64,000 nucleotides of DNA, taken from positions 4,410 through 68,409 of IMG/VR virus record IMGVR_UViG_2788500234_000002, one strand, 5' to 3'. Every line of letters begins with the position of its first letter. Within the stretch, counting starts at the first letter, position 1. The notes below the pieces were generated by a model. That model was not told the origin of the DNA. It did no database searches and worked only from the letters and a program-made list of their open reading frames with translations. The position numbers were made by a program, and so were the translations under genes. Source of the stretch: a virus (Duplodnaviria; Caudoviricetes). Below, piece by piece: positions 46,902 through 62,635 of this stretch.

Positions 46902-47218
46902 TCACAGCGTAAACTGCCACAGCGTAAACAAGCAGATTGAAATATCGGGAATCATAAGAAAGGTGTCCTTCCGAAGAAATCGCCAAATTTCAAGTTATAC
47001 GGGACACGTCGGCTCTCCCCTCCAAAAGGGGCGGGCCGCCATTCACTCCGGAAGGCATCGCCAATAACCTACAGTAATAAAACAAAATCAAAACAAACAA
47101 TAAACAAATGCAATTACAACCAGCTATTTACGACAGTGTAAGCCACTTTTGAAGAATCTGTTTTTGTATTTGTTTTGATGATATTTGGTGTATTTTTGTT
47201 GCTTATTTGTTACTTGTA

Positions 47219-47249
47219 TTTGCTGGGTAACAAAAAATGCCTACCTTTG
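47219..47249 (+). promoter_or_regulatory. Integrase promoter
   Basis: TTTG-N19-TACCTTTG, 27 nt before MAKKK start. Confidence 0.7.
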
Positions 47250-47275
47250 TAGTGGTAACATTCAATAGTAGCATT

Positions 47276-48424
47276 ATGGCAAAGAAAAAGAAAGCTGTCA
47301 AGGCTAAAGAGCCGATCAGATTACGATTCAAGGAACTTGCGAACGGGAATAAAAGTTTGTATCTGGACACTTATAGGGATGGGAAACGATCTTATGAGTT
47401 TCTGAAACTCTACCTTATACCGGAAACAAATGAGGAAGCCAAGATGAGGAATGCTAATACTCTACAGGCTGCAAACTCTATCAAAGCGCAAAAGATCATC
47501 GAACTTACCAATGGAGAAGCTGGAATTAGCAAAAATTCCACCAGATCAAAGATGCTTCTAATGGACTGGATGAGGTACTACAGCGAGCACAAGCTAAAGA
47601 CTGGGCAAAGTGCCGCTTTTCATATCCAGATAGATAAGGCTATAAAGCACCTCATTAAATATAAAGGTGAAGATATTACGATGAAAGAAGTGGATAAGGC
47701 TTATTGCATCGGCTTTATAGACTATCTGAATAATGCCAAACGGAAAGATGGAAAACCGATGGCTAAAGTTACAACCGCAGGTTATTTTAGGTGCTTGAAT
47801 TGTGCCCTAAATCTTGCTGTAAAGGAAGAGATCATTCCTTATAATCCAATTTCAAAAATAAATTCAGATGATCGAATCAAAATACCAGAAAGCACACGGG
47901 AATACCTGACTGTTGAGGAGGTAAAAAAGTTGATAGCAGAAAAATGTATCAATGAACCGACCAAACAAGCGTATTTATTCAGTTGCTTTTGTGGGTTAAG
48001 ATTGGGCGACATTCAGGCTTTGACTTGGGGAGATATTATTTTAGATGGCACACAATACAGGGCAAGAATAGTGATGAAGAAAACACAAAAAACACTCTAT
48101 TTGCCTTTGTCCGATGAGGCTTTGAAGTGGATGCCTGAACGGGGAGAGGCAAAAGATACGGATAAAGTTTTTCATCTTCCTTACCCTACTTACATAAATG
48201 TAGTGCTGAAAACATGGGCGCAAAATTGTGGAATAACAAAGACGGTGACATTTCACACCGCCCGGCATACATTCGCCACAATGATGCTTACATTGGGGGC
48301 TGATCTTTACACTACGAGCAAACTATTAGGGCATACACAAGTAAAAACTACCCAAATATATGCTAAGATAGTTGATAAGAAAAAAGATGAGGCGGTGAAC
48401 CTTGTAAATGAAATCTTCAAATAA
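47276..48424 (+). CDS. Tyrosine integrase (Bacteroidales type)
   Basis: N-terminal arm-binding SLYLDTY..RSYEFLKLYL; FSCFCGLR, TFHTARHTFAT, LLGHTQVKTTQIYA catalytic motifs; start taken at MAKKK. Confidence 0.95.
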   Translation: MAKKKKAVKAKEPIRLRFKELANGNKSLYLDTYRDGKRSYEFLKLYLIPETNEEAKMRNANTLQAANSIKAQKIIELTNGEAGISKNSTRSKMLLMDWMRYYSEHKLKTGQSAAFHIQIDKAIKHLIKYKGEDITMKEVDKAYCIGFIDYLNNAKRKDGKPMAKVTTAGYFRCLNCALNLAVKEEIIPYNPISKINSDDRIKIPESTREYLTVEEVKKLIAEKCINEPTKQAYLFSCFCGLRLGDIQALTWGDIILDGTQYRARIVMKKTQKTLYLPLSDEALKWMPERGEAKDTDKVFHLPYPTYINVVLKTWAQNCGITKTVTFHTARHTFATMMLTLGADLYTTSKLLGHTQVKTTQIYAKIVDKKKDEAVNLVNEIFK

Positions 48425-48431
48425 TGGATCT

Positions 48432-48611
48432 ATGGGCAAAGCTAAGAAAATGAAATGCAAGGTGTGTGGCTATGAATGGCTACAATATGAGGGAATAGGA
48501 CTGCAAGGAATAGAGATTGATCCTAAAGAAGATAAAGATATTATCAAATGCCCTCAATGCAATACAACAGATGTAGAACCAGATGAAAAGGAACATATCC
48601 TATGGGATTAA
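48432..48611 (+). CDS. Small zinc-ribbon protein
   Basis: CKVC..CPQC; 59 aa from MGKAKK. Confidence 0.6.
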   Translation: MGKAKKMKCKVCGYEWLQYEGIGLQGIEIDPKEDKDIIKCPQCNTTDVEPDEKEHILWD

Positions 48612-48904
48612 ATAATTGCTTTTCTGGCATACCAGAAGATTATACAAATTACAGGTGGTATAAGGGCGAACAAATGAATCCATACACAAAAGACACATTC
48701 CACCCCTTAGCCGCTTCTTTTTGGGAATATGAGCGTATCTTCCACTTGGGGTATCTTGGCAAGGCTGACACAAACAAAAGCCTTACAGAAGCCTACAATA
48801 AGTGGAAAGAAGAGTTTATCAATGATTATTTACCCGGTAAATCTCCAAATCCCTATGGTGACAACACCGACTGGGAAAAGGTTTTTGAAACGGGTTTGAA
48901 ATAG
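48602..48904 (+). CDS. Hypothetical protein
   Basis: 100 aa, overlapping upstream gene. Confidence 0.7.
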   Translation: MGLNNCFSGIPEDYTNYRWYKGEQMNPYTKDTFHPLAASFWEYERIFHLGYLGKADTNKSLTEAYNKWKEEFINDYLPGKSPNPYGDNTDWEKVFETGLK

Positions 48905-48927
48905 AATGTTTAAGAAAGCGGGTAACA

Positions 48928-50094
48928 ATGAACAAGACTATAGAACGAGAATACTTTAAGGCTTTTGAACGTGGCGGCACTGCCTATAAATGTGTAGAGG
49001 TGATAAAGCGCAAATATGATTTAGGATATTTGCCACAGAACACGCCAGAAGAAGAAAACGAGTTGGCACAACTTTCTCCAGAGGAAGAAAGAGAACATAA
49101 GAAATGGGAGCATTTTTATAATGTGGTATTGCCCGATCAGATCATACGGGAAACTGAATCTTTTGATTTTAGTGTCATAGATGGTGGGCGTATCTCCAGA
49201 ATTATTGAGGAAATAGAAGCCAATCTGAATGAGTGCAAAAGTGAAGCTGATAGAGAACGCTATTTATTCTCTTTGCTTTGTCCATTTGAAAGCACAATCA
49301 ACTTTTGTTATCCGATAGCCAATCTTGAACGGTTGGAGAAAGAGATCAATGAATGTAATGCCTCAAATGAATCAGAAGCGTGCGCATATTATCAAAAAGA
49401 TATTGATAGAATCAAGCACATACAAGATCGCTTAATAGATTTATGTTGGCAAGAGCATGAAAAAGGCACTGTAGAATATTGCTTTATGCGATGGTTTAGA
49501 AGTGCTAAGTCATTTTCCGATAGACTGGATGCCTTATTGCTTACTTATGGTATTGATTTGCTGGAACTGCAAAAGAAGAGTGGTATATATATAAAGCCAA
49601 AGTGCAGAAGTATAACTGATGTTGCTTATTACATTGGTAGCTATGAATTGGCACAACATTATATCTATACTTTGCCAAGTCATTCAAAATCTGATACAGA
49701 CCAAAGGAATGTCTATAAATCTGTTGAGAATAATACGTTTCACACAGGTAGTGATGAGGGGTACTTAACATCTGTATTTAGCAAGTTAAAAGATAACAAG
49801 TACATTGATGCGAACACTGATGTATCTACATGGTTGTACATTTGTGGAAAAGGTAATGTAGAAACGTTCACACCTATAAATTGGATGAGGAAGCAACAAG
49901 AATTAGCGTATCTCATAGATGCCTTATTTGGTGACACAGATCGTTATTTTTGGGAGATAACACAAAAAGTTTTTAGAGTAAAGGGAAGAACACCAAATAC
50001 AGATTCTATGAAATCTTTCCTCTCTAAAATAAGGAATAATTGGAAAGATAAACCAGATGAAATAGATGAATTAAAGGAGATTTTACGAGCGTAG
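48928..50094 (+). CDS. Hypothetical cargo protein
   Basis: 388 aa, AT-rich; no motif I can name. Confidence 0.75.
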   Translation: MNKTIEREYFKAFERGGTAYKCVEVIKRKYDLGYLPQNTPEEENELAQLSPEEEREHKKWEHFYNVVLPDQIIRETESFDFSVIDGGRISRIIEEIEANLNECKSEADRERYLFSLLCPFESTINFCYPIANLERLEKEINECNASNESEACAYYQKDIDRIKHIQDRLIDLCWQEHEKGTVEYCFMRWFRSAKSFSDRLDALLLTYGIDLLELQKKSGIYIKPKCRSITDVAYYIGSYELAQHYIYTLPSHSKSDTDQRNVYKSVENNTFHTGSDEGYLTSVFSKLKDNKYIDANTDVSTWLYICGKGNVETFTPINWMRKQQELAYLIDALFGDTDRYFWEITQKVFRVKGRTPNTDSMKSFLSKIRNNWKDKPDEIDELKEILRA

Positions 50095-50122
50095 ATTTAT
50101 AGATTAGATAACATTACATAAC

Positions 50123-50243: not shown

Positions 50244-50528
50244 ATGGAAGAGAAATTAGATAAGATTCTGGCTTATTCCTTATTAGGTGCAAAAAATGTG
50301 CTGACAATGGAAGATGCCTCTTTATTAACGGGGTTGAGAAAAGCAACTTTGTACAGTATGACTTGTAAACGTCAGATACCTTACTATAAAAAGGGTAGAA
50401 TTGTTTACTTTGACCGTGCAGAATTAGAGGCATGGATGAAGCAAAATAGAGTTCCTACACAACAGGAAACAGAACGCAATGCGATTGCATACGTAGTGAC
50501 AGGAAAGCAGAAAGGAGGCGCACAATGA
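50244..50528 (+). CDS. Excisionase-family helix-turn-helix protein
   Basis: VLTMEDASLLTGLRKATLYSMTCKRQIPYYK..VYFDRAELEAW. Confidence 0.85.
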   Translation: MEEKLDKILAYSLLGAKNVLTMEDASLLTGLRKATLYSMTCKRQIPYYKKGRIVYFDRAELEAWMKQNRVPTQQETERNAIAYVVTGKQKGGAQ

Positions 50529-50986
50529 TACTGACGGATTACTATAGGCTGGTGCGCTTACAGGAATACGCCCAGAACAAGACACCCCGATTTGACTGCA
50601 TCGCCTCAACTGGTGAATATCCAAAGTTTGAAGAAATGGCGGCAAGAAGCAAGGTGAAGCGTTTCTATTGCTACTACAATGGAATCCCGGATTCATTCTC
50701 AAACAGAGCCAGACAAAAGGCAGAGAGAGCCATTACAAGCACTAAAAACATAAGCAGCGTATTTATTCCGAACATTAATAAACCGCTGTTTGGTTTTGGT
50801 GATGTAAAAGGCACACAGGACGCTATCCTCTTTGTGTTCTCAGCGGATTACAATCTGATGGAGATATTCATAGCAAGAGGATATAAGCACCAACAGAGAG
50901 CCTTGTATAATGCGATGGTAAAAGGTGAACTAAGCGCAGAAATCTACAAAATTAGGCAAATGGCTATCAACTTAACAAGATATTGA
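50525..50986 (+). CDS. Hypothetical protein
   Basis: 153 aa, coupled to HTH gene. Confidence 0.7.
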   Translation: MILTDYYRLVRLQEYAQNKTPRFDCIASTGEYPKFEEMAARSKVKRFYCYYNGIPDSFSNRARQKAERAITSTKNISSVFIPNINKPLFGFGDVKGTQDAILFVFSADYNLMEIFIARGYKHQQRALYNAMVKGELSAEIYKIRQMAINLTRY

Positions 50987-50987
50987 T

Positions 50988-51641
50988 ATGGATCAAAAGT
51001 GTATCAATGGCTTTATGAATGCTATAAATTCCCAATATAGTACATTCAATAGATTTAAGATTACAGATTATGATGAGGCAACAATCAGAGAGTTTTTGAA
51101 GATTTGCTATCAGAAAGAGGTTGAAATTAGAAGAAAGCAATTTAGGGAAGATGAGCAGATCAAATCACTTTTGAACAAGGCTGCAAAATGGCTTTGCTGT
51201 GATTGCAAGGTTGGATTATTGCTTTATGGTGGAGTTGGAAATGGCAAATCTACCTTATCTCGTGCTATATGCAAACTAATAGAGATGTTATATCCTAACA
51301 ATAGATTTGACGCAAAAGAAAATGCGCCTACGATTATTACAGCACTTGAGCTTGCTAAAATAGCAATAGATGAAAATCAACAGTTCTGCAAGATAAAAGA
51401 ATGCTCAAAGTTGATTATAGATGATTTAGGGACAGAGCCACCAACTATTAAAAGTTGGGGAAATGAAATATCTCCATTAACGGAAACTCTATACAATCGG
51501 TACGATAAGCAATTATTTACCATTGCCACATCAAATCTCAATGACAAGGAAATTAAGGAGCGTTACGGCATCCGTATCGCTGATAGAATTGAAGAAATGT
51601 TTGATAAGTTGTATTTCAATGGAAACAGCTACAGGAGATAA
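50988..51641 (+). CDS. DnaC/IstB-like ATPase
   Basis: GGVGNGKS, IIDDLGTEP, ATSNL, RYGIRIADRIEEM. Confidence 0.85.
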   Translation: MDQKCINGFMNAINSQYSTFNRFKITDYDEATIREFLKICYQKEVEIRRKQFREDEQIKSLLNKAAKWLCCDCKVGLLLYGGVGNGKSTLSRAICKLIEMLYPNNRFDAKENAPTIITALELAKIAIDENQQFCKIKECSKLIIDDLGTEPPTIKSWGNEISPLTETLYNRYDKQLFTIATSNLNDKEIKERYGIRIADRIEEMFDKLYFNGNSYRR

Positions 51642-52311
51642 GGGCATTAGGGATTCATTCATATTCTACAGGAGCTTCCAAGAAGCAATAGACGGCTGTA
51701 GTAAAGAGGATCAATTAGTCATATACAAAGCCATAGCCAATTATGCTTTAGATAGAATTGAGCCTGAACTATCTGGAGTTGCAAAAGTTGTCTGGGTGCT
51801 TATAAAACCGCAACTTGATGCAAACTGGAAACGGTTCTACAATGGATGCAAAGGTGCAGAGTTTGGTGTGAAAGGTGGTGCGCCCAAAGGAAATAAAAAC
51901 GCATACAAGGGCAAAACAACCCCAAAACAACCCCAAGTAAACCCCTTAGCCGTTGAAAAATCAACCCCTAATAATAATGTAAATGACAATGTAAATAATA
52001 ATGATAATTGTAATGTTAATGTAGAAATAAAAGCACATACAAAGAGTGAAACGAAGCGTTTCACTAAACCAAGTATAGATGAAATAGAAAAATACATTTC
52101 TGAGAACTCATATTCTGTAAATGCTCAATCTTTTTATGATTACTATGAATCAAATGGCTGGATGGTTGGTAGAAATAAAATGAAAGATTGGAAAGCAGCA
52201 ATACGGAAATGGGAACACAGCGAATGGAATAATAAAAACAAAACTCCTAAACTAAGTTTTGAAATGGCTGGATCAGACAATAGAGAGGGAGAATTTACAA
52301 CAACACTTTAA
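51619..52311 (+). CDS. Replication initiator (DUF6291-like N-terminus)
   Basis: SFIFYRSF..AIANYALD N-terminus; C-terminal YYESNGWMVGRNKMKDW domain shared with prophage initiator; start taken at METATG. Confidence 0.75.
   Translation: METATGDKGIRDSFIFYRSFQEAIDGCSKEDQLVIYKAIANYALDRIEPELSGVAKVVWVLIKPQLDANWKRFYNGCKGAEFGVKGGAPKGNKNAYKGKTTPKQPQVNPLAVEKSTPNNNVNDNVNNNDNCNVNVEIKAHTKSETKRFTKPSIDEIEKYISENSYSVNAQSFYDYYESNGWMVGRNKMKDWKAAIRKWEHSEWNNKNKTPKLSFEMAGSDNREGEFTTTL
51913..51968 (+). repeat. AAAACAACCCC iteron-like repeats, probable element origin
   Basis: Tandem copies 51913 and 51924, partial copies 51939 and 51963, then AT-rich AAT repeats. Confidence 0.5.
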
Positions 52312-52502: not shown

Positions 52503-53180
52503 ATGCTTATGGAAGAAAGAATACTGGTCTATAAAGATCCTGTTGAGTATGACGGCACAATAAAGCGTTACCAATGGCTTGCAAAGATGATGCAAGAATT
52601 GGCAGACGGGCTTAAAAAGCTGAATGTTGAGCCAACCATAACTCTGATAAAACGCCTCATTAAAGGAGAAGATTTGAGGGCGTTAATTGCCTCAAAGAAT
52701 GTATCTGACAATTTCGGGGATATGCCTAAAGTTATGCAGAAAACCTTTCAGGAAATGTTCGACAAAGAAAATGAGGCTGATTACAAAGAACTCATAGAGG
52801 AAAAGGCTGCAAGAATTGGGGGCGTGCTGAATAAAGGAGAGTACATCATTAATCGATCTTTCTTTGATTTGAAAGATGGTAAAATTATCCTTTCTCCAGA
52901 TCATATCAAGGAAATTGAATCCCGTTGTTGCGTCTATATTGATACTCCGGGAAGAGAAGCCGTTTATAAGAATTGGCTTCAACTGGTAGAAGCAATGCGC
53001 CAATTTGATGAGGCTGTGAAGAACGCTGCCAAGATAGAAGTGTCAGAGTTTCAAAGGCATAGTGGGATTGATCCGGATTACTTACAAGCAGTAGCAGTTC
53101 CGGGGAGATTTTCACTGGCAAAGATCAACTATGAGGGTAAATTAGTGTTGAATGGAGAAAACTTTGAGTATATCCAGTAG
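52503..53180 (+). CDS. Hypothetical protein
   Basis: 225 aa. Confidence 0.7.
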   Translation: MLMEERILVYKDPVEYDGTIKRYQWLAKMMQELADGLKKLNVEPTITLIKRLIKGEDLRALIASKNVSDNFGDMPKVMQKTFQEMFDKENEADYKELIEEKAARIGGVLNKGEYIINRSFFDLKDGKIILSPDHIKEIESRCCVYIDTPGREAVYKNWLQLVEAMRQFDEAVKNAAKIEVSEFQRHSGIDPDYLQAVAVPGRFSLAKINYEGKLVLNGENFEYIQ

Positions 53181-53225: not shown

Positions 53226-53259
53226 TTCATAAAACGGCATAAAAACGGCATTAAGTGAT

Positions 53260-53771: not shown

Positions 53772-54005
53772 ATGAGTATTAATTGTAAAGAGATAGAGCA
53801 TTATAAAGAAGTCATTGTTAAGGCAGCGGGAAATGATCTATATCACAGTGATTGCCCGGAACTGCAACTTGACACTTTAGCACTTATTGTTGATGGGTTA
53901 GTTAAAGACAATAAAGATGGAAAGAATGAGCAACTTATAGGTTTTCTTGCCCATATAGGCAAATCCCTCAACGAGTTAATCAAGTATCGTAATTTAATGA
54001 AGTAA
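53772..54005 (+). CDS. Hypothetical protein
   Basis: 77 aa before TMP. Confidence 0.6.
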   Translation: MSINCKEIEHYKEVIVKAAGNDLYHSDCPELQLDTLALIVDGLVKDNKDGKNEQLIGFLAHIGKSLNELIKYRNLMK

Positions 54006-54009
54006 ATGT

Positions 54010-57000
54010 ATGGAAAATATAGGTGGAGCATTAGCATTCAAAGCCACTCTTGATATAGATGATTTCAAGGTATCAAGCGAAGCGATGGGGCGTTATATCA
54101 AAAACGCTTCTGATAATGCCGTGCTGGAAGCAAACCGCATGGAGCAATCGTTTCTGACCTTTGCGCAAAACGGAGCGAGATATATTGTTTCCTACCTTGT
54201 TGGGCAAGGAATGATGAGCCTTGTGCAAAGCATAGTGCAAGTGCGTGGGCAGTTCCAGCAACTTGAACTGGCTTTCAATACCATGTTGAGAAGCACTGAA
54301 AAATCACAGGTGCTTATGTCGCAACTGGTAGATACAGCCGCTAAAACTCCGTTTGACCTTACCAGCATAGCGCAAGGAGCAAAACAGATGCTTGCTTTCG
54401 GATCAAATGTGGGAAGCGTGGTAGATGAGATCGTGATGCTTGGTAATGTGGCTTCTGGTGTGAGTGCGCCACTTGGAGATCTTATCTACCTCTATGGAAC
54501 ATTGAGATCGCAAGGCAGGGCATACACGGTGGATATTCGCCAGTTTGCCGGGCGTGGTATTCCTATCTATGAAGAGTTGGGAAAGGTGCTTAACGCAGAC
54601 AGGCAGGAACTGAACAAGCTGGTAACGGAGGGAAAAGTTGGATTCCCGGAAGTTGAAAAGGCATTTAAGAACATGACCAGTGAGGGCGGTATTTACTTCA
54701 ACCTCATGCAAGAGCAAAGTAAGTCGCTTACTGGTATGCTTTCAAACTTGGGCGATGCTTGGGATAGTGCGCTTAACAAGATCGGCAAGGATAATGAAGA
54801 TTTGTTCGCTGGAGCTATTCAGGGTGCTATAGACCTTGTAGAGAATATGGATGAGATTATCCGTATTGTACAGGCTGTTACTATTGCCTATGGAAGCTAC
54901 AAGGCGGCAATAATGCTGAATACACTTGCCACAAAGGGATATACCGGGGTTGCTTTGATAGACAACACGGTTAAACAGGCAAAGATAGCCTTACTGAAAG
55001 CAGAAGCCACCATTACAGGGCAGACAGCGGCACAAATAAAGGCTATGACAGCTGTACAACAAGCCCATGTAGCCGCATTGCAAAAGGAGCTTACAGCGGA
55101 AGAGCAAGCCAATCTGGTAAAGAAACTCCGTATTGCCACCATACAGCAACTTTTGACAGCACAACAGCAGGAATACTTATCCAACCTTAACCTTACCGCC
55201 TCTTCTGCCAATTATGAGGCTGTAGCTACTTCTGTATTGACTGTTGAGCAAAGGGAAGCACTTAGCAAAACCGATCTATCGGCTAAGAGTGCTGTATATC
55301 GTGCGGCTCTGGAGCAAGAAGTGGCAGCAAAAAGGAGTAATATAGTCGCTTCTGTAGAAACTTTGCGGGAAGAAGTAAAATTGGCTGCAAGTCGGGCTGA
55401 ATCTGCCAAGAAAAACTCTATATCAGCGATGCAAGCTACAGAAGCGGCACGGGCTACTTTGCTTGCCGCCAGAGAATCGGGGAAAGCCTCAAAGATAGCT
55501 TCAGCAGAAAAAAGATTAGAAACAGCCCAAACAAAACAACTTACTTTAGCCCAAGAACGTATGGCAGCAGTTGCTGACTTCAACGCTAAAAAGAAGCAGT
55601 TGGAAGCGGCAGCAATCCAGCAATCAAGGTTAGCCTCATCCATAGACACAGCAGCAAAAACAGCACAAGCTACCACTACCAATGTTCTAACATTAGCGAC
55701 TAACAAACTTACAGCCTCATTTAAGGCATTGTGGCTGTCAATGAAAGCAAATCCTATTACATGGGTCGTTTCATTGGTTGGAATGGCTTTCAGTGCGATT
55801 TCTATGCTTTCTTCAAAGACTAAAGAACTGGAGGAAGATACGGTAAGTTTGGCTAATTCAACCAAACGAGCTACAGAGCGATTCAGTGAAGAAGCTGGAA
55901 AAGTTGAGGCTTTGGAGAAAATAATCAGAAATAGCAATGTTGCATACGATGAGCGCAACAGAGCTTTAAATGAACTGAAACAGATTATACCCGGATATAA
56001 TGCAGAATTGACCAAAGAGGGTACTATTATCAATGACAATGCCGATGCAATCCAGCGGTACTTAAGTTTGTTAGAAAAGCAAATAAGGATGAAAGCGGCA
56101 CAAGAGGAACTGGAAGCAGCTTATAGGGAAAAGAGGCTCAAAGAAAAAGAGATCATCCAAAAACAAGCAGCCTATGATGAAGCGAGTGCCAACGTTCCAG
56201 ATGTAGCCTATGGCGATGCTGGAGCACAATATCAGATGTATGCTTTGAGGCAAGCAGGGAAAGCGGAAAGACAACTAAAACAGGCTCAAAAGGAACTCAC
56301 AGACATAAACAAGACTATTGAAGCGTTGAACCAAGAGATCAGCGACTCTTCAGGGGAAATAGACAAATCTTCCGAGAGTGCAAAAACTTATTCAGAGCAG
56401 ATAGCAGACACGAGAACACAAATTGCCACGCTTACAAAAGAGTTGGAAGATTTGCGATCTGGAAAAGTTGTCAAAGACAATTTAGCAGGAGAGATAGATG
56501 CCAAAATAAAAGAACTCAATACGGCAAAAAAGAATCTCGAATTGCTTACTGGTATTACAAGCTCTGGGAATAGCAGTAACAGCGCAAATCAGTTATCACA
56601 GAAAGAACTGGAGGCACAACGTGAATTGGAAGAGGCACGTATCTCTATCATGGAAGATGGCTATGAGAAACGTAAAGCCATTCTGGACTTACAGCACAAA
56701 GAGAATCTGGATCGCATAGACAGAGAGGAAAGAGAACTGGAGAAAGCACGTAAAGCAGCCGGAAAAGGTGGATTGACTGCAACGGAGCAAGAGGGATTCG
56801 ATGAGAGAAGAAGCATTGAGAATACCAGTTATCAGAGAGAGCAAAACAAGCTGTTTGATGGTGAAATAGCTTACAAAAAACAGCAGTATGAGTTGTATTT
56901 CCGCTGGGTGCGTAATCTGGGCGAAGATGTAGCGAACACACAGTTCGCAAACTTGCTGAAAGGCGGTGCTTCATTCAAACAATATCTGGAGAACCAGATA

Positions 57001-59094
57001 GCGGAAATGAACCAGAAGAAAGAAGCCGGGACACTGACAGAGGGCGAGGGAAACCACCTTATTTCCCTGAATATGCAATATGATGAGATCACGGGCGCAA
57101 AGTCCGCAATGGATCTTTTCAAGGAAAGTGTTACGGAAGCAATATCGCAAGCCAGCACACTTGCAGAGAGAGTGCAAGCCATAGCCGATGCCAAAGAAAG
57201 GCTTGCAAGCGGAAGTACAGGGCTTGTTGGTGATGATGAGAAAGCGGAAGCAAGCCTATTCATATCGGAGAAGCAAGCGGAAGCGGATAAAGAAATTCAG
57301 GATAAGATACTGAATAATTACAGAAGTTATGAGGAACAAAAGAAAGATATTCAGGAGGAATACGCTTTATTGCGCTCCGAGGCTCAAAAGACAAACGATC
57401 AGGAACGTATAAAGATGATTAATGAGGCAGAGAATGAAGCACTTTCAACTCTTAATGCCAATTTCCTTAAACAGTCTGATAGTTGGAAATCTTTGTTTGA
57501 AGATCTGGATAACCTTTCTGCCAAAGAGATTGCAAAGCTGTTATCTGATATTGAAACACAACTTGATAATTCTGATTTGAAACTTAGTCCAGTTGACTAT
57601 AAGGCGTTGATTGATAGCCTGAATAAGGCAAGGCAGGAACTTATATCAAAAAACCCTTTTACGGCTTTAGGCGCATACTTCGATGATTATATTAAAGCTA
57701 AAGAAAAGTTGGCAAAAGCAAAAGCAAACTTACTGGCAGGAAAGGGATCTGACAAAGATGTGCAAAATGCAGAAAAAGAAATGAGAGAATCCGCAAAAGG
57801 CGTAACAGAATCAGTTGAAGCAATAACAAGAGCCGCTACAGAATGCGGTAGTTCGCTTGCTTCAATGTTTGAAAGTTTTGGTGCGGATGGATTAGCAGAA
57901 GGTCTTGGGACTGCAACAGAGCTTTTAGGACAACTGGGAAATACAGCGGCAAGTGTTGGCAAGCTGATGAGCGGTGATATTCTTGGCGGTATTACAGGTA
58001 TAGTAAGTTCCGTAACTTCTGTTATCGGTATATTCAATAAGTTACATGATAAGAAGTATGAAAAAAGGATCGAACAATTACAGGATGATATAGATAACTT
58101 AGAGCGTTCTTACAGCCGTTTGGAACGTGCATTCAATAACACATATTGGGTTTTTGATGAGCAACAGAGAGAGGGATATGAAAAAAATATCAATCTAATA
58201 AAAGAACAGATCTCCGCTTTGGAGAAACAACAGGCTGTTGCACTTAGAAGCTGGAACTTCGTAGAATACGCAAAACTTACAGCGCAAATTAAGGAGCTGA
58301 ACGGTGAGCTTCAAAAAGCGGAAGAAAGCGGAGATATGTTTTCTATATACGAGGCTCAAAAAGAAAGTCTTAGGAAACAGCAAGACGATCTTAGAAAACA
58401 GATTCAAGCAGAACGGGACAAAAAAGACACTGACAATAACCGTATAAATGAATGGGAAAATCAAATAGAAGCCATTAACCAACAAATAGAGGATCTGGAT
58501 AAGGCAATGATGGAAACTTTGGCTGGTACAGACGTTCAAAGTGCCATTGATGAATTTGCCGATGCCCTTGTAGATGCTTATTGTCAAGGTGAAGATGCGG
58601 CAAAGGCATTGGGTGAGGTAACGAAAGAAACTCTTAAAAATGCGGTTGTGGAAGCCTTAAAACGCCAGTTCCTTGCTAAAGCCATTAATGATGCCGTGCT
58701 TTATCTTGGTGAAGCCATGCAAGACAATGTGCTATCAGACTATGAGAAGAAGCGGTTTGAGGAAATGGTGAAGCTGGGAGCGGATAAATTCAATATGGCT
58801 TTGGAGAGTGTAGGCGACTGGATAAAGGATCAGACGGAAGAAGAAGAGGAAGCCGATCCTCTTACTGGTGCTGTTACTTCCATGAGCGAGGAAACAGGAG
58901 GTGTGATTGCCGGGCGTTTGAATGCCTTTGTAATCAACCAGAGCGATCAGATAGCGATTATGAGGCAATATCTTATTTATCAAATAGAAATAGCGGAAAA
59001 CACACGTTATTGTAGAAGACTTGATGAAATTGCTGATTCGTTAAAGAGAATAGAAAACAAAGATAATTCATTACTATCACAAGGAATATCGTAA
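54010..59094 (+). CDS. Tape measure protein (1694 aa)
   Basis: Tape-measure domain AAKTPFDL..GAKQMLAFG..DIRQFAGRGIPIYEEL; N- and C-termini homologous to prophage TMP. Confidence 0.92.
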   Translation: MENIGGALAFKATLDIDDFKVSSEAMGRYIKNASDNAVLEANRMEQSFLTFAQNGARYIVSYLVGQGMMSLVQSIVQVRGQFQQLELAFNTMLRSTEKSQVLMSQLVDTAAKTPFDLTSIAQGAKQMLAFGSNVGSVVDEIVMLGNVASGVSAPLGDLIYLYGTLRSQGRAYTVDIRQFAGRGIPIYEELGKVLNADRQELNKLVTEGKVGFPEVEKAFKNMTSEGGIYFNLMQEQSKSLTGMLSNLGDAWDSALNKIGKDNEDLFAGAIQGAIDLVENMDEIIRIVQAVTIAYGSYKAAIMLNTLATKGYTGVALIDNTVKQAKIALLKAEATITGQTAAQIKAMTAVQQAHVAALQKELTAEEQANLVKKLRIATIQQLLTAQQQEYLSNLNLTASSANYEAVATSVLTVEQREALSKTDLSAKSAVYRAALEQEVAAKRSNIVASVETLREEVKLAASRAESAKKNSISAMQATEAARATLLAARESGKASKIASAEKRLETAQTKQLTLAQERMAAVADFNAKKKQLEAAAIQQSRLASSIDTAAKTAQATTTNVLTLATNKLTASFKALWLSMKANPITWVVSLVGMAFSAISMLSSKTKELEEDTVSLANSTKRATERFSEEAGKVEALEKIIRNSNVAYDERNRALNELKQIIPGYNAELTKEGTIINDNADAIQRYLSLLEKQIRMKAAQEELEAAYREKRLKEKEIIQKQAAYDEASANVPDVAYGDAGAQYQMYALRQAGKAERQLKQAQKELTDINKTIEALNQEISDSSGEIDKSSESAKTYSEQIADTRTQIATLTKELEDLRSGKVVKDNLAGEIDAKIKELNTAKKNLELLTGITSSGNSSNSANQLSQKELEAQRELEEARISIMEDGYEKRKAILDLQHKENLDRIDREERELEKARKAAGKGGLTATEQEGFDERRSIENTSYQREQNKLFDGEIAYKKQQYELYFRWVRNLGEDVANTQFANLLKGGASFKQYLENQIAEMNQKKEAGTLTEGEGNHLISLNMQYDEITGAKSAMDLFKESVTEAISQASTLAERVQAIADAKERLASGSTGLVGDDEKAEASLFISEKQAEADKEIQDKILNNYRSYEEQKKDIQEEYALLRSEAQKTNDQERIKMINEAENEALSTLNANFLKQSDSWKSLFEDLDNLSAKEIAKLLSDIETQLDNSDLKLSPVDYKALIDSLNKARQELISKNPFTALGAYFDDYIKAKEKLAKAKANLLAGKGSDKDVQNAEKEMRESAKGVTESVEAITRAATECGSSLASMFESFGADGLAEGLGTATELLGQLGNTAASVGKLMSGDILGGITGIVSSVTSVIGIFNKLHDKKYEKRIEQLQDDIDNLERSYSRLERAFNNTYWVFDEQQREGYEKNINLIKEQISALEKQQAVALRSWNFVEYAKLTAQIKELNGELQKAEESGDMFSIYEAQKESLRKQQDDLRKQIQAERDKKDTDNNRINEWENQIEAINQQIEDLDKAMMETLAGTDVQSAIDEFADALVDAYCQGEDAAKALGEVTKETLKNAVVEALKRQFLAKAINDAVLYLGEAMQDNVLSDYEKKRFEEMVKLGADKFNMALESVGDWIKDQTEEEEEADPLTGAVTSMSEETGGVIAGRLNAFVINQSDQIAIMRQYLIYQIEIAENTRYCRRLDEIADSLKRIENKDNSLLSQGIS

Positions 59095-59095
59095 T

Positions 59096-59605
59096 ATGGA
59101 ACTGGTACACCAAATCAAACAGGATGGAATAGCAAAGGGATTGTGCCGTTTGTGGCAAATGAAGCTCAAACCGGGTTTGGGCGTGGATTCCCTTGCTGAA
59201 TTGTATATACGAGGGATAGACTTCTGTATAAAGAATGATTATCCAACACTGGACTTCCTACGCACAAACTTCAAAGGGAAGTGTGAGGATTACGGTGTGT
59301 ATGTGGATGATGAAGTTGTGGAGAAAAACAGGAAAGATGTAGTGTTGAACGGTGACTGCAAAGCGATGTTGGAGTATGACGGTTTTGCCGTTTCAAACAT
59401 CTATATCCGGCACAACTCCAAAGCCTCTGTGAATGTGGGCGACCATGCTATTGTGACCATTGATATTTTCGATAACTCATACCTTGCTATCGCTGTGGCT
59501 GGGAAGTATGCAAAAGTACTTGTAAATGTTTATGGGAAAGCAGCTGTAGAAATAGCTGGTGGCATAAACATAAAGATTAGATATGTAGGCAAAGATACAT
59601 ATTGA
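59096..59605 (+). CDS. Post-TMP protein, homologue of 34966-35487
   Basis: 169 aa; GLCRLW, GIDFCIKNDYP, FKGKCEDYGVYVDD align with prophage gene. Confidence 0.85.
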   Translation: MELVHQIKQDGIAKGLCRLWQMKLKPGLGVDSLAELYIRGIDFCIKNDYPTLDFLRTNFKGKCEDYGVYVDDEVVEKNRKDVVLNGDCKAMLEYDGFAVSNIYIRHNSKASVNVGDHAIVTIDIFDNSYLAIAVAGKYAKVLVNVYGKAAVEIAGGINIKIRYVGKDTY

Positions 59606-59623
59606 AGTATTAACTGGGTTAAT

Positions 59624-59658
59624 ACAGAAGAGAGGTGATAAAAAAGCCTCTCTTTTGT
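59624..59658 (+). terminator. Intrinsic terminator after TMP operon
   Basis: ACAGAAGAGAGG / CCTCTCTTTTGT stem. Confidence 0.7.
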
Positions 59659-59688
59659 TTGTTATATGTAATAAACACGATATATTTG
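59658..59688 (+). promoter_or_regulatory. Promoter of lipoprotein gene
   Basis: TTTG-N19-TATATTTG. Confidence 0.65.
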
Positions 59689-59738
59689 TATCGTATTAAA
59701 GAAATTATAGCGTTTGCTATTGTTTTTGGGTAAAGAAA

Positions 59739-59828
59739 ATCGCCAATAATTCAACACTCCAAAAAGCAATAAGTGAAACGCCACGTTGTGCGTGGGCGTT
59801 ACTTATGGAGTGTGGGCGTTGTGGCGAT
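59739..59828 (+). other. Long nested RNA hairpin in 5' leader
   Basis: ATCGCCA/TGGCGAT, CACTCC/GGAGTG, ATAAGT/ACTTAT, AACGCC/GGCGTT, CACG/CGTG nested pairs. Confidence 0.6.
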
Positions 59829-59915
59829 GCCTCTTTACCAATGAGTGATCGTCCACGCTATTTTTTAAGGATGGATCTCTCATAAAGAGGAATTTTAATC
59901 TATAATGAATGCGAT

Positions 59916-60506
59916 ATGAGAAAGATCCTATTTACGCTTTGCCTGATAGCTTTGATAACAGGATGCAGCAAAGAAGATGAGCCAGCAGTGCCAACCAATA
60001 CGTCAATAGATGTTAGTGAGTTGGTTTCATTTATCGGGAAAAGTCCCCAATATGTCAAAGACAACTTTAAAGATGGCACTTTGGCAAACGAGGGTGGAAC
60101 ACTGGGTAAGACAGAACTAAGCTATCATTATAAAACGAATGACAATGAATATCGGATCGTTTTCAGTGGTAACACAGAAAATGAAATGACTGATATAACT
60201 GTTATTGGTGACTTTAACACATACGCCAATGGAATAGAAGTCTATAAAAAGGAAATGGACTTAATAAATGAATCCATTGATCATGTAACATATATTGCCC
60301 GATACTATGATAAGATGGCTGGATTGATGGATTTTTCAAGCCGTAACGAGTTCTGGCAATATGTATTAGAAAATGATGTAAGTAGAAGCGTAACGGAAAC
60401 TTGGTGGATAGTGAATGAGGCTACCCAATATTTTACCGTAGATGGTACATACGATAGAGATATTAATAGGATTACCGTGCAGATCGAAAATAAAGTGTAC
60501 GATTGA
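59916..60506 (+). CDS. Lipoprotein of unknown function
   Basis: MRKILFTLCLIALITGC SKEDE signal/lipobox with acidic export-like motif; own promoter and terminator. Confidence 0.8.
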   Translation: MRKILFTLCLIALITGCSKEDEPAVPTNTSIDVSELVSFIGKSPQYVKDNFKDGTLANEGGTLGKTELSYHYKTNDNEYRIVFSGNTENEMTDITVIGDFNTYANGIEVYKKEMDLINESIDHVTYIARYYDKMAGLMDFSSRNEFWQYVLENDVSRSVTETWWIVNEATQYFTVDGTYDRDINRITVQIENKVYD

Positions 60507-60530
60507 TCCGGTATAATAAGTAAGTATATG

Positions 60531-60560
60531 GAAAGCTGCCTATATTGGTGGCTTTTTTTG
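60531..60560 (+). terminator. Intrinsic terminator
   Basis: AAAGCTGCC..GGTGGCTTT stem then T tract. Confidence 0.55.
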
Positions 60561-60618
60561 TTTATGAAAGCCACATGAGACATTCGGGAAGAAGATTGGA
60601 TATATGGATTTCAGCAAG

Positions 60619-60725
60619 TGTGTTTATTGAACACATCAAAGTGTGTTTGGTGAACACATTTTGCTGATTATCAACAAAATAGATTGAATTTTATTTGTTT
60701 GTTCGGATCATAGCATATAACTTTG
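60619..60725 (+). promoter_or_regulatory. Two TGTGTT-N5-AACACA palindromes (60619-60635, 60642-60658) upstream of TTTG-N20-TAACTTTG promoter (60694-60725)
   Basis: Read directly from sequence. Confidence 0.6.
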
Positions 60726-60752
60726 TTCGCAGAAACGATAAGGTTATATGCT

Positions 60753-61037
60753 ATGATTGTAATAGAACTATATGAACTGAAAAATATCTGTATGGAAATG
60801 GCAAGTTTGGGAGCGGCTAATTATGTCAAAATGACCAAACCTGCTGATGATCTCATATCACAGCGTGAGGCGTACAGGGAGTTTCAGGAGTGCCGGGTAA
60901 AGAAGTGGGTACAAAAAGGATTGATCACTACTACCCGTGGGGGTGCTTCCATTCGTTCAAAGGTTCTTTATTCAAGGGCTGACCTTATGGCAGTTGAGAA
61001 AGCGGAAAAACTGAATTGTATAATCAATAAACTGTAG
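60753..61037 (+). CDS. Phage-type winged-helix-like protein
   Basis: LISQREAYREF..RVKKWVQKGLI..SKVLYSRADL pattern; start at MIVIEL. Confidence 0.6.
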   Translation: MIVIELYELKNICMEMASLGAANYVKMTKPADDLISQREAYREFQECRVKKWVQKGLITTTRGGASIRSKVLYSRADLMAVEKAEKLNCIINKL

Positions 61038-61041
61038 TAAT

Positions 61042-61329
61042 ATGGATATGAACAAACAAAATGGCTTTAGCTATGCAAACGAGCCAGCAAACTATCAAGA
61101 GGCACGGGAATCAATTTTAAGCCTTATGCGTAACCTCACCAAAGCGAAAAAGGACATGAAAGCTATATCAGAGTTGGATATAGTGGTGGAACAATTCCAA
61201 GAAAGAGCAAGAGAAATTATTGGAGAATTAAGTCAAGCGGTTTATTCACTGGGTGAAATTTACGGCTATACCCTCTCTGATGATATTTTGGGAAATGTAG
61301 AACTTGTTAATGAAAAATGCCATGCTTAA
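61042..61329 (+). CDS. Hypothetical helical protein
   Basis: 95 aa. Confidence 0.65.
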   Translation: MDMNKQNGFSYANEPANYQEARESILSLMRNLTKAKKDMKAISELDIVVEQFQERAREIIGELSQAVYSLGEIYGYTLSDDILGNVELVNEKCHA

Positions 61330-61564
61330 AAAGTCCACACCACAAAAGATTAGAGCGGATATTGATAATATAGTGAAAATGTGCCTTTCATTACAAAATG
61401 CAATCGGAAATCTTTTAGAGGAAGAAGCCCTTAAAAATATGTATTTTAATGAATTGCATAAACTTGATGATAATGTAATGGGGATATTGAATGATCTACA
61501 TCCGATTATTGGCTACTCTGTTGTTTTAGATGTTGAAAACTCATACAAACATGAATGTGAATAA
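61322..61564 (+). CDS. Hypothetical helical protein
   Basis: 80 aa from MLKKSTP; IIGY motif resembles IYGY of preceding gene. Confidence 0.6.
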   Translation: MLKKSTPQKIRADIDNIVKMCLSLQNAIGNLLEEEALKNMYFNELHKLDDNVMGILNDLHPIIGYSVVLDVENSYKHECE

Positions 61565-62186
61565 CATACCTTTTGGAAGCCAGCAATCCCATTTTACAGG
61601 CAAACCAGATATTTTGCCGGGCGGTTTCACTTTTGATAAAGAACATCAAAAGTTAAGCGTTGGTGATATTGTTTCAGCAGGAACATTGGGGATATGTGAT
61701 GAACTGAATAGAACTATACGGATAATAAAAACCGCAAGAGTTTCAAATATTAGTGAAGATGGGAGAAAAGTAGAGTTGTGTACTTACCCATACAATGATC
61801 CATGCTTTAAGGTTGGGGAAAGGGTGTATAAAGCGGACTGCACAAATGTTGATTTCTCAACAGTTCCAAAGATTGAGAAGATCAAAGAAACAGGCGTTTA
61901 TGTGCTCTATCTATCTTGCCCTATTCCAGACTTGAAAGAGAATGATATTATAGAGCAAATGGTAGAATCTGACGGGATCGCTGTAGAGATAGGGAAAGCG
62001 GACTGCTTAACGATTAGGAATGTTGAACTAACGGATCTTGATGCTGGAGTAGATGTCACACAAAGTACAGGAATATTTTCTGTAAAGGAGAAACTTATCC
62101 CACCTATACCAAATAGCCAGAAAGATCCTACAGGGAAATTCTTAATTGGCAACCCACATATAAAATTAATATCCATTTTAGAGTAA
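61551..62186 (+). CDS. Divergent homologue of prophage head decoration protein
   Basis: DILPGGFTF, GTLGIC..IIKTARV, FKVGERV align with DIPGGVTV, GTPLGV..VCKTAQI, FKVGDRF of 25898-26464. Confidence 0.65.
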   Translation: MNVNNIPFGSQQSHFTGKPDILPGGFTFDKEHQKLSVGDIVSAGTLGICDELNRTIRIIKTARVSNISEDGRKVELCTYPYNDPCFKVGERVYKADCTNVDFSTVPKIEKIKETGVYVLYLSCPIPDLKENDIIEQMVESDGIAVEIGKADCLTIRNVELTDLDAGVDVTQSTGIFSVKEKLIPPIPNSQKDPTGKFLIGNPHIKLISILE

Positions 62187-62376
62187 TTTCTAACTACCCA
62201 ATTTTTATAATTATCAAGTGTGAGAGTGGAGAGCCGGGAGGTTGTGCCACTCTTTTTCATACCAGACATACCAGAACGAGTGAGAAAACAACGGGAAAAC
62301 GACGGAAAAGTATCAATAGAGCCTCTGAAAGTACTATTTGGATGTGTGCTTTTTTGAGGAGCTTTGTATGCGTGTT

Positions 62377-62407
62377 TTTGCTGTTTCAGATGGAAATTCT
62401 ATCTTTG
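62377..62407 (+). promoter_or_regulatory. Promoter near right end of element
   Basis: TTTG-N19-TATCTTTG. Confidence 0.6.
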
Positions 62408-62462
62408 TATCAGAAAAGCCCGCCAAAGGCGATAAATTAGCCGTTTTGTTACTGGAATGTTA

Positions 62463-62494
62463 CCCGCTTTCTTAACAAGCGGGCTTTTTATTTT
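62463..62494 (+). terminator. Intrinsic terminator before right att
   Basis: CCCGCT / AGCGGG stem followed by CTTTTTATTTT. Confidence 0.6.
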
Positions 62495-62635
62495 GTATAT
62501 CAGATATTTACATGAAACTCTGTTTGTTATCGCCAAACGCCCGTTATACGTAAATGACGGCCCGCCTTTCTTTTTCAGAAGATGTTTAATGTATAACGTC
62601 CTAAGGCTGCCGGGGAACAAAAAACTCAAACTTTT

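Follow-up and report, generated by a model that had tools for sequence, protein, structure and literature searches.

In the 64,000-nt window that we analysed, a 15.5-kb element occupies positions 47057-62536 and is enclosed by two copies of the 8-bp direct repeat ATCGCCAA (Table 1). Homology to three copies of the element that have other left flanks (L042, L043 and L047) starts at 47054-47055, and homology to a copy with a different right flank (L009) stops at about 62541. One metagenome contig runs from one flank straight into the other and leaves out precisely 15,472 bp, with the joint running from 47056 to 62529 and 8 letters that fit either side (a single low-depth record, with 27 nt on one side). 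These 15,472 bp form a distinct unit delimited by the 8-bp repeat, and the site occurs with or without it. The breakpoints and the skip contig replace the ends given in the earlier note on this DNA, a 7-bp repeat (TATTTAC) at 47125 and 62511. The expected circle junction (attP ..TGTTTGTT-ATCGCCAA-TAACCTACAG..) was found in none of the contigs from four runs. The element was detected in 20 runs from 9 studies, mostly of chicken or bird gut metagenomes. Left flanks, insertion sites and integrase modules vary among the copies, and variants with a different integrase are inserted in a tRNA gene and bounded by a repeat of their own. It is a real 15.5-kb mobile element.

Table 1. Features of the element, with positions in the window.
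Feature	Position	Strand	Remark
attL core ATCGCCAA	47057..47064	.	left copy of 8-bp direct repeat
Tyrosine integrase, 395 aa	47237..48424	+	Pfam Phage_integrase, Phage_int_SAM_5 (SAM-like), Arm-DNA-bind_5; phrog_1
67-aa ORF, function unassigned	48408..48611	+	kept in most lineages
100-aa protein, phrog_28232	48602..48904	+	PHROG match E 8e-42
388-aa protein, integrase-side backbone	48928..50094	+	homologues adjoin integrase
HTH_17 AlpA/Xis-type DNA-binding protein	50244..50528	+	Pfam HTH_17 E 1.5e-11
153-aa backbone protein	50525..50986	+	most conserved element-specific gene
DnaC/IstB-like AAA+ helicase loader	50988..51641	+	phrog_50 E 3e-30; NCBIfam PRK08116, DnaI-like
DUF6291 protein	51523..52311	+	Pfam DUF6291
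225-aa protein	52503..53180	+	core gene, present in every TMP-bearing lineage
Tandem 11-mer AAAACGGCATA, two copies	53231..53251	.	TRF; just upstream of TerS homologue
Small terminase (TerS) homologue, 155 aa	53260..53727	+	profile search
77-aa helical protein	53772..54005	+	4 nt upstream of TMP
Tape measure protein (TMP), 1694 aa	54010..59094	+	Pfam TMP_3; phrog_9959
Post-TMP protein, 169 aa, cysteine-rich	59096..59605	+	phrog_10156
Long stem-loop, ~113 nt, 39 predicted pairs	59729..59841	+	z-score -4.8
196-aa predicted lipoprotein, variable cargo slot	59916..60506	+	weak LPAM_1 lipobox match
Two 23-bp near-palindromic repeats, operator-like	60616..60659	.	upstream of 60723
104-aa protein, phrog_17289	60723..61037	+	PHROG match E 2e-49
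Two small ORFs, 95 + 86 aa, function unassigned	61042..61564	+	
218-aa phrog_9196 protein (decoration position)	61530..62186	+	PHROG
22-mer GAAAACAACGGGAAAACGACGG (tandem 11-mers)	62284..62305	+	also at class A terS-proximal site
attR core ATCGCCAA	62529..62536	.	right copy of 8-bp direct repeat

Related elements form at least five diverged lineages (B1-B5) that keep the same small layout, with synteny, at identities of 26-41% between integrases and 49-73% between TMPs. The other relatives that matter here are the class A phages, a family of 53-58-kb (about 55-kb) siphophage-like Bacteroidales phages. At least seven genes of the element have class A homologues, i.e. those for the TMP, the post-TMP protein, TerS, the loader and the phrog_9196, phrog_28232 and phrog_17289 proteins.

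The left part of the element carries the integration and replication genes. An intact integrase, an Xis-like HTH protein and a loader had been claimed from the sequence, and all three were recovered in domain and family searches; the HTH protein also matches phrog_66 and phrog_1840 (excisionase/regulator). The integrase shows a dN/dS of 0.017 against L047. The small ORF that follows is 42-97% identical (tblastn) in B1, B2 and B5, and the phrog_28232 protein is a core product with 57-99% identity across all satellite lineages and 82% identity to a class A protein (G410 24140-24421, minus strand). The 388-aa protein had no match in Pfam, PHROG, NCBIfam or PADLOC; its homologues adjoin the integrase both in satellites and in relatives of about 5 kb. 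The 153-aa protein (63-94% identity in B1-B4) has homologues in 10 of 401 Bacteroidales species genomes, some of them in elements of about 5 kb with a Phage_CRI Rep. The loader is 51% identical to that of class A and is swapped for a different module in L009 and L042. The DUF6291 protein, a putative replication organiser, resembles in its C-terminus (54% identity) the product of the gene that precedes the loader gene of the adjacent prophage (6709-7407). The origin-like repeats mentioned in the earlier note do exist, but they are weak, iteron-like 11-mers and 19-mers within the DUF6291 gene (51890-52042). The 225-aa protein (29-95% identity in B1-B5, two copies in L022) had no family match in PHROG, Pfam, NCBIfam or PADLOC, nor did Atlas give a result.

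The TMP of the element is an allele mosaic, in which blocks with 96-100% protein identity to class A TMPs stand beside a divergent, satellite-specific block at about residues 1100-1500. The DNA homology to class A begins at the TMP ATG and ends within the post-TMP gene (54008-59573), and the TMP N-terminus has a dN/dS of 0.01-0.04 against class A. The post-TMP protein is 90.5% identical to that of the class A phage L008 and 40% to that of the neighbouring prophage, has cysteines that are conserved in the alignment (A4) and is fused in frame with the TMP in G001; it probably works together with the TMP in tail-tip assembly. These comparisons indicate that the TMP and post-TMP genes are alleles recombining with those of class A phages. 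These genes are more than the divergent homologues described earlier, since with respect to class A they are near-identical alleles. The 77-aa protein is a core product (43-97% identity in all lineages) encoded always immediately 5' of the TMP; it showed no similarity to class A pre-TMP ORFs and is a possible TMP chaperone.

Towards the right end the genes are more variable. The predicted lipoprotein occurs in B1 and the variant group B1' (L072-L075), other lineages hold different genes in the slot, and a role in exclusion or defence would be only a guess. The phrog_17289 protein is 77% identical to a class A protein (G410 1545-1820), and the 95-aa ORF is conserved (31-99%) in B1, B2, B3 and B5. 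The phrog_9196 protein, found in B1 alone, is about 40% identical to a class A homologue whose gene sits between those for a scaffold-like protein (phrog_5824/172) and a phrog_29 major capsid protein. It may alter the head; its predicted model is poor (pLDDT 51) and fold matches tie at Z ≤7.4, none of them informative. No ORF of the element had a PHROG or Pfam match to capsid, portal, TerL, tail tube, tail tip or lysis genes, as had been claimed, and capsid, portal and TerL matches were absent from all of lineages B1-B5.

The class A homologues and the position next to a full prophage would also fit a defective prophage of class A or neighbour type, left immobile after deletion of the head genes and of most genes for the tail. 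We regard this as highly improbable. The reduced layout is repeated in at least five lineages at 26-60% protein identity, flanks and integrases vary among the copies, and the skip contig is exact. All ORFs are intact, as the earlier note had stressed, and the ten genes tested are under purifying selection (dN/dS 0.02-0.33). The shared layout, the varying sites and integrases and these dN/dS values together imply that the element is not a deletion remnant. Moreover, the decoration-like gene follows the TMP, unlike in class A, so the element cannot be derived from a class A genome by simple deletions. The int-HTH-153-aa backbone is common to integrative elements of about 5 kb and absent from class A phages, and in the class A phage G410 we saw no integrase and found ParA/ParB-like genes instead. 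The core of the earlier reading, a satellite-like element with its own TMP rather than a decaying prophage, is supported by these results, and also by a TerS homologue without TerL and a cis-site in common with one phage family only.

The TerS assignment, also claimed before, rests on a profile (A2) that matches, with E 1e-14 to 1e-49, one gene in each of the five full-length class A phages. In every case this gene overlaps the beginning of a Terminase_3 TerL gene; in G410 this homologue (17574-18116) and TerL are then followed by a portal homologue. Fold predictions and searches with the TerS-like protein gave no informative match. In the B1' variants the TerS-like ORF has only 91 aa and in B5 there was no match, so TerS may not be essential to these satellites. 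The tandem AAAACGGCATA 11-mers just upstream follow a terminator-like hairpin, and a function may be presumed for them. Another connection to class A is GAAAACAACGGGAAAACGACGG near the right end, where 62278-62311 matches G410 17534-17567 at 91% (blastn). This 22-mer is present in only nine IMG/VR contigs, eight class A phages and the B1 satellite record, and in 8/8 of the phages it stands 12 nt before the TerS ATG, which makes it a candidate packaging or late-control site.

We consider the class A family, apparently temperate or plasmid-like siphophages, and not the adjacent prophage, the likely helper. The 68-kb record that carries the element yielded no class A phage, and five genomes with class A phages gave no match to the 153-aa marker. 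The earlier note had thought of the adjacent prophage as a possible helper. This prophage (window 1-46.4 kb) lies directly beside the element. As a complete siphovirus it falls within the same broad family and shares its gene order with class A at 25-40% identity, and in BLASTP the element matches it in the TMP C-terminus (29.5%), the post-TMP protein, the loader (26%) and the DUF6291 C-terminus. Of the 'exactly three' virion genes said to be common to both, the TMP and post-TMP genes were confirmed, but the decoration gene had no significant match in the neighbour (BLASTP; hhalign E 0.022), and the loader and DUF6291 were additional matches. That the neighbour is the helper is nevertheless very unlikely: identities are 24-40% only, its TerS is unrelated (phrog_309; hhalign E 0.32), the common DNA amounts to two matches of about 50 nt, the 22-mer doublet is absent, the genes starting at 48602, 60723 and 61530 have no homologues there, and other copies of the element are flanked by no such prophage. 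It is probably an unrelated neighbour.

In the explanation that we favour, and consider fairly probable, 47057-62536 represents a phage satellite that integrates and depends on a helper. Its family, which occurs in gut Bacteroidales and has apparently not been described before, would have the tail tape-measure gene as hallmark cargo. TerL, capsid, tube and tail tip would come from a class A phage that multiplies alongside it in the cell, while the satellite would excise by its integrase and AlpA/Xis-type HTH protein, replicate by means of its loader and DUF6291 protein and rely for packaging on its own TerS, on the phage-type site near terS or on both. Its TMP, post-TMP and 77-aa proteins would be fed into tail assembly, and the TMP allele in particles with satellite DNA would then be one that the satellite selects. 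A modified head, packaging diverted to the element and tails built to its own design, all proposed before, may be part of its life cycle. Because helper phages have largely identical TMP alleles, it is hard to explain what the satellite gains from a copy of its own; by analogy with PLE11 the pay-off would most likely be escape from TMP-directed interference or exclusion, and it could extend to entering cells that already hold the helper.

Alternatively, the mobile island could use its phage-derived genes mainly as an anti-phage weapon. Its TMP and post-TMP, near-identical yet chimeric, and also its TerS would disrupt tail assembly or packaging of infecting class A phages, and the island would spread by other means or by rare transduction. 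Tail-assembly interference systems are common in satellites and PICIs (PMC11364771), Rta of PLE11 targets the helper TMP (PMC12987554), the near-identical TMP blocks beside the divergent block would allow co-assembly, and a variable cargo slot lies 3' of the TMP module. We nonetheless think this reading unlikely. In known satellites interference does not preclude hitch-hiking, and a TerS homologue together with the phage-type 22-mer suggests that the element is itself packaged. The cargo-slot gene had no PADLOC match, and among the element ORFs none was recognised (PHROG and Pfam) as serving conjugation or mobilisation.

For the satellite reading there are precedents, and the earlier statement that a TMP is normally missing from known satellites is outdated: TMP-carrying satellites already in print are PLE11, E. 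coli islands and the EPIPs. PLE11 replaces TMP, TAC and BhuB with versions of its own, which gives chimeric tails built with helper parts, and tmp genes were reported in further putative satellites (Extended Data Fig. 10; PMC12987554). Like PLE11, the element lacks most virion genes and has its own TMP with small tail-assembly partners. It differs in phylum, in its tyrosine recombinase, in lacking a known Rta homologue and in its helper, apparently a temperate or plasmid-like siphophage instead of the lytic myovirus ICP1. The PLE11 TMP is about 20% identical to that of ICP1, against 96-100% in blocks here, and the chimeric tails were demonstrated there, whereas our case is known from sequence alone. 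The strategy of bringing an own TMP, recently shown for cholera PLE, is apparently described here for the first time in gut Bacteroidales. The putative satellites of Inny/Muut-type phages in E. coli, described from sequence (Barth, Dunham and Seed 2023, PMC10448857), are likewise integrated and carry an integrase, a TMP, a decoration protein and also a baseplate-hub component without most tail genes; unlike the element they encode a major capsid protein, belong to Enterobacteria and match virulent phages, and they are unrelated in sequence. The earlier mention of TMP-carrying satellites in mycobacteria was correct. The EPIPs of Mycolicibacterium aichiense were reported to encode a TMP and to alter tail length (PMC12822802, preprint). 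They are actinobacterial and differ in a serine integrase and in the TerS, adaptor, stopper, scaffold and capsid-related genes listed.

With Gram-negative PICIs and SaPIs the element has in common its size (~15 kb, about 1/4 to 1/3 of that of the helper) and the arrangement of an integrase, an AlpA/Xis-type HTH gene, a replication module, TerS without TerL and an accessory slot. It differs in using a DnaC-like loader and DUF6291 and not a Pri-Rep type initiator (none detected), in having no detectable Ppi/Rpp or CpmAB homologues and in carrying TMP, post-TMP and decoration-position genes. P4-like satellites are also integrative and of similar relative size. P4 and P2 have a common cos site, and the element similarly holds a copy of a helper cis-site adjoining the helper terminase gene region, but its 22-mer is only a candidate cos or pac site, and the element yielded no homologue of sid, psu, delta or alpha-primase.

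We also observed two further features in the right half. The 23-bp near-palindromic repeats may serve as operators. The long stem-loop contains ATCGCCAA and one compensatory pair, and its DNA is about 91% identical between lineages with proteins only 26-60% identical; its core 29-mer occurs in four IMG/VR contigs only, all of them TMP satellites.

[quoted passage not shown] The window is the final 64 kb of a virus record of 68,409 nt, and every ORF of the element lies on the plus strand (see the table). The tRNA-Ser(TGA) gene is probably the attachment site of the large prophage, in which case prophage and element would have a common hot spot with separate att sites. No element ORF matched a capsid, portal, TerL, tail tube, tail-tip or lysis family in PHROGs, Pfam or NCBIfam (several ORFs are unannotated), in agreement with the earlier note, which had described the element as lacking these genes; portal, capsid and TerL were also without match in the related small elements (class B). 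The NCBIfam search of the element added nothing beyond the loader, the flanking tRNA was the sole match in Rfam with none inside the element, a megablast comparison of the element with GenBank phages was without match, and the ESM Atlas had no usable result for the 225-aa protein.

Features of the window, with positions in the window and supporting matches
Feature	Position	Strand	Remarks
Siphovirus-type prophage, complete	1-46.4 kb		TerS, TerL, portal, major capsid, 1460-aa TMP, Dit-like protein
tRNA-Ser(TGA)	46625-46710	minus	between large prophage and element; 3' end faces prophage
Tyrosine integrase	47237-48424	+	
67-aa, 100-aa and 388-aa proteins	between integrase and HTH_17	+	100-aa protein: phrog_28232, 48602-48904
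HTH_17 AlpA/Xis-type protein	50244-50528	+	Pfam
153-aa protein	after HTH_17	+	
DnaC-like loader	50988-51641	+	NCBIfam among supports
DUF6291 protein	51523-52311	+	
225-aa protein	after DUF6291 gene	+	
TerS homologue, 155 aa	53260-53727	+	
77-aa protein	4 nt before TMP	+	
TMP, 1694 aa	54010-59094	+	TMP_3 domain (Pfam)
Post-TMP, 169 aa	after TMP	+	phrog_10156
Predicted lipoprotein	after post-TMP	+	
Three small ORFs	after lipoprotein	+	one is phrog_17289, 60723-61037
phrog_9196 protein, 218 aa	61530-62186	+	
Lipoprotein gene with Big_2 domains	starts 62636, right of attR		Pfam

The ends of the element are formed by an 8-bp direct repeat, ATCGCCAA (47057-47064 and 62529-62536). Homology with the near-identical copies L042, L043 and L047, which have other left flanks, begins at 47054-47055, and homology with L009, which has another right flank, is lost at about 62541; since the repeat sits at these breakpoints, we took ATCGCCAA as the att core. 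The sequence TATTTAC, earlier proposed as att, was rejected, because it is only 7 bp long and lies inside the homology common to copies in other flanks. Among contigs of four chicken/bird gut metagenomes, one joins 47056 to 62529 and thereby leaves out exactly 15,472 bp; at the joint, 8 letters fit both sides. This joint is that expected of an empty site and, as it was found in only one contig, of low depth and with just 27 nt on one side, it was treated as supporting evidence and not as proof. The flanking sequences form an inverted repeat with the insertion target in its loop, which accounts for the contig joints between opposite strands at the element. The exact circle junction (..TGTTTGTT-ATCGCCAA-TAACCTACAG..) was absent from the viral contig and metagenome contig collections searched, no circle-type joint (one that goes back) was present in the contigs of the four metagenome runs, and the exact empty-site pattern had no match in the metagenome contig collection. 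The integrase and HTH_17 genes, the repeat ends, the contig that skips the element, the differing flanks and an exchanged integrase in L072 all mark the element as mobile. Contigs of 15.3-17.4 kb (L022, L042, L047, L072 and L074) were considered as possible circular assemblies and rejected, as no terminal overlaps were found.

We also observed a second, unoccupied attB-like hairpin with a ATCGCCAA core at 46979-46986, about 80 nt to the left of attL; as at the real right flank of the element, GTTATACG comes next. In the metagenome contigs the depth of positions 46957-47056 is much higher than that of the element, so the target may belong to a family of repeated hairpins.

Searches based on the TMP and on marker genes yielded two kinds of relatives, the class A phages and the class B elements, the latter being small, bearing a TMP and having the layout found in the window. 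Class B includes the lineages B1 (the window, L009 and L042-L047), B1' (L072-L075, with a different integrase, inserted in a tRNA gene and with its own flanking repeat), B2 (L022, L025 and L002), B3 (genome G001), B4 (genome G027) and B5 (L087). The integrase, phrog_28232, HTH_17, 225-aa, 77-aa and TMP genes are present in every lineage, and the post-TMP, 153-aa and TerS-like genes are kept in most. It is very unlikely that the element is a prophage in decay: the small layout is kept across lineages with integrases that are 26-41% and TMPs that are 49-73% identical, dN/dS is 0.02-0.33 for ten genes (window versus L047), and the decoration-position gene (phrog_9196) follows the TMP gene in the element but stands 5 kb before it in class A, so that the gene order of the element cannot have arisen from a class A genome by simple deletions. 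The view of the earlier note that the element is not a decaying prophage is thereby supported. In B1', the TerS-like gene has lost about 195 nt, as seen in four samples, leaving a 91-aa ORF, and a 294-aa gene, 36-41% conserved in B2, B3 and B5, has been gained in the cargo slot.

A further finding was the closeness of the element to class A. The adjacent prophage, initially put forward as a possible helper, is only distantly related to the element (29.5% identity in the TMP C-terminus and 40% in post-TMP), and class A is far closer. In bins of 100 residues, identity between the window's TMP and class A TMPs is 96-100% for the greater part of residues 1-400, 600-1100 and 1500-1694, with a divergent block at about residues 1100-1500; other B1 copies hold other combinations of class A-like TMP blocks, with lengths of 1630-1782 aa. 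Homology with class A DNA runs from the TMP start codon (54008) to inside post-TMP (59573). The N-terminal part of the TMP gene gave a dS of 0.18-0.30 and a dN/dS of 0.01-0.04 against class A, which indicates that the gene is maintained by selection in both satellite and phage contexts. Furthermore, the class A gene homologous to that of the 155-aa protein extends into the start of a Terminase_3 TerL gene and is located upstream of the portal gene, a position that identifies it as TerS, and identity with class A is 82% for the phrog_28232 gene, 77% for the phrog_17289 gene and 51% for the loader. A non-coding 22-mer, made up of two 11-mers (62284-62305), matches class A sequence ending 12 nt before the TerS ATG. 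Across the whole of IMG/VR the 22-mer occurs in nine contigs, of which eight are class A phages, all with it in this position, and the ninth is the B1 satellite record; it is a candidate cis-site for packaging or late-gene control. The element and class A are thus connected by sequence links, i.e. the TerS homologue, the exclusive 22-mer and common TMP/post-TMP alleles. Within the TMP gene, the segment 57510-58248 had no cover in the four metagenome runs, and all other B1 copies have another sequence in its place. This segment represents an allele of the variable block that is private to the window. Class A phages, as seen in G410 (L069/L070), have ParA-like, ParB_N/DUF4417 and ADP-ribosylglycohydrolase genes in a minus-strand block between the MuF-like and scaffold-like genes; an integrase was not seen in G410, and some members of class A may therefore be prophages of a plasmid-like type.

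Structure and profile searches were made for the proteins around the TMP. For the TerS-like protein (AlphaFold pLDDT 67) Foldseek gave no PDB match at E<=0.001, the best Z in the wide VIA search was 4.7, and hhalign against the TerS of the neighbouring prophage gave nothing. The model of the phrog_9196 protein had a pLDDT of 51, with a best VIA Z of 7.4, tied among unrelated beta-barrels, and only uncharacterised proteins in BFVD. Post-TMP is a cysteine-rich viral protein for which the PDB profile search gave nothing and the ESM Atlas only unnamed viral clusters. In G001 (L039, 8368-13263) TMP and post-TMP form one open frame of 1631 aa (..SQGIS-YS-MEVV..), whereas in the other elements a stop codon and 1 nt separate them. 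This frame, seen in a single record, reflects either a fusion that exists in nature or an assembly difference of 2 nt, and as a fusion it supports the idea that TMP and post-TMP act together. The 77-aa protein is always encoded 4 nt upstream of the TMP gene, had no detectable similarity to class A pre-TMP ORFs and may be a chaperone.

Directly 3' of post-TMP we found a stem-loop of about 113 nt (59729-59841; z-score -4.8, 39 predicted pairs), which is about 91% identical across lineages whose proteins are 26-60% identical and whose core occurs in only four IMG/VR contigs, all of class B. A variable cargo slot adjoins its 3' side; PADLOC gave no defence match among the cargo genes.

The phage satellites of Proteobacteria and Firmicutes have been studied in depth; in the literature searched we found no Bacteroidales satellite of this kind. 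TMP-bearing satellites are already in print: PLE11 of V. cholerae swaps the TMP, TAC and BhuB of its helper ICP1 for its own and escapes its own TMP-targeting Rta, and tmp genes occur in other putative satellites too (PMC12987554); further examples are E. coli islands that bear TMP, hub and decoration genes (PMC10448857) and the EPIPs (PMC12822802). PLE uses a TMP and tail partners of its own for chimeric tails; in the element, the TMP gene and the genes of possible tail partners (77-aa and post-TMP) are present, conserved and under selection, and their products might serve in tails likewise. The element clearly differs from PLE, with its Vibrio host and ICP1 helper, in host phylum and helper type. 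As in Gram-negative PICIs, an integrase gene is followed by an alpA-type regulator, here with three ORFs in between, and the TerS homologue would correspond to the packaging redirection gene of PICIs (a TerS homologue or Rpp/Ppi). In place of the Pri-Rep initiator and adjacent ori of PICIs, however, the element has a DnaC-like loader and a DUF6291 protein, no primase/replicase domain and weak repeats only. The cf-PICIs have their own MCP, portal, protease and connectors, whereas the element gave no MCP, portal or protease matches, and of such head and connector genes class B has only the phrog_9196 gene (B1) and a phrog_5377 gene with a weak Neck1/tail-completion match (B2 and B3). P4-like satellites have a cos site identical to that of their helper; the 22-mer in common with the terS-proximal region of the putative helper may represent the same kind of cis-site sharing as between P4 and P2. 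The sid/psu/delta genes and alpha primase-helicase of P4-like satellites were without PHROG or Pfam counterparts in the element.

We propose that the element would be packaged with the aid of a helper, that its TMP, post-TMP and 77-aa proteins would be used in tails otherwise made of helper parts, and that the phrog_9196 homologue possibly modifies the head. Given the variable TMP block (residues 1100-1500, approximately) and the way in which alleles are shuffled between satellite and phage, we conjecture that there is selection on TMP specificity, related to exclusion, defence or entry. A wider scenario, which taken as a whole we consider unlikely, is that of a widespread gut Bacteroidales satellite family defined by TMP allele substitution, in which TMP/post-TMP cassettes are constantly recombined with helpers, transducing particles evade TMP-directed exclusion or defence, including on entry to helper-carrying cells, the satellites form a reservoir that drives phage TMP mosaicism, and the 113-nt stem-loop is a new satellite-specific packaging/replication signal. 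What makes the present case interesting is the exactness of the link to a helper, together with the exchange of alleles and the conservation of the stem-loop. The case offers a defined pair of a satellite and a candidate helper in a dominant gut phylum, in which the ends of the satellite are known exactly and a candidate packaging site and a structured element that is conserved are at hand, and it extends the very recent PLE11 finding of tail reprogramming to a different situation. The TMP is the sole virion gene constant across all lineages and is exchanged with the helper allele by allele, which raises two testable questions: why a parasite should have a tail ruler of 5 kb, and what gives rise to TMP mosaicism in gut phages.

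The backbone of integrase, 388-aa, HTH and 153-aa genes is also found in integrative elements of about 5 kb with a Phage_CRI rolling-circle Rep. Of 401 Bacteroidales species genomes, 10 have the 153-aa marker; it was not found in five genomes with class A phages, which is not to be read as absence. In L060, L063 and L064 (genomes G041, G352 and G373) these elements have a 372-aa protein in the backbone and a G2P-like Rep, L063 also encodes a small protein with a borderline DUF5681 match (27.3 bits against a cut-off of 27.5 bits), and the three may belong to a related family, consisting of mini integrative elements or of satellites that lack a TMP. Finally, the lipoprotein encoded to the right of the element (62636-64000) has a signal sequence (..LALCLAGC), three Big_2 domains and Fib_succ_major/Lcl_C-like ends and runs off the contig; the start codon of this gene is about 100 nt downstream of the element, and the latter may influence how the gene is expressed.
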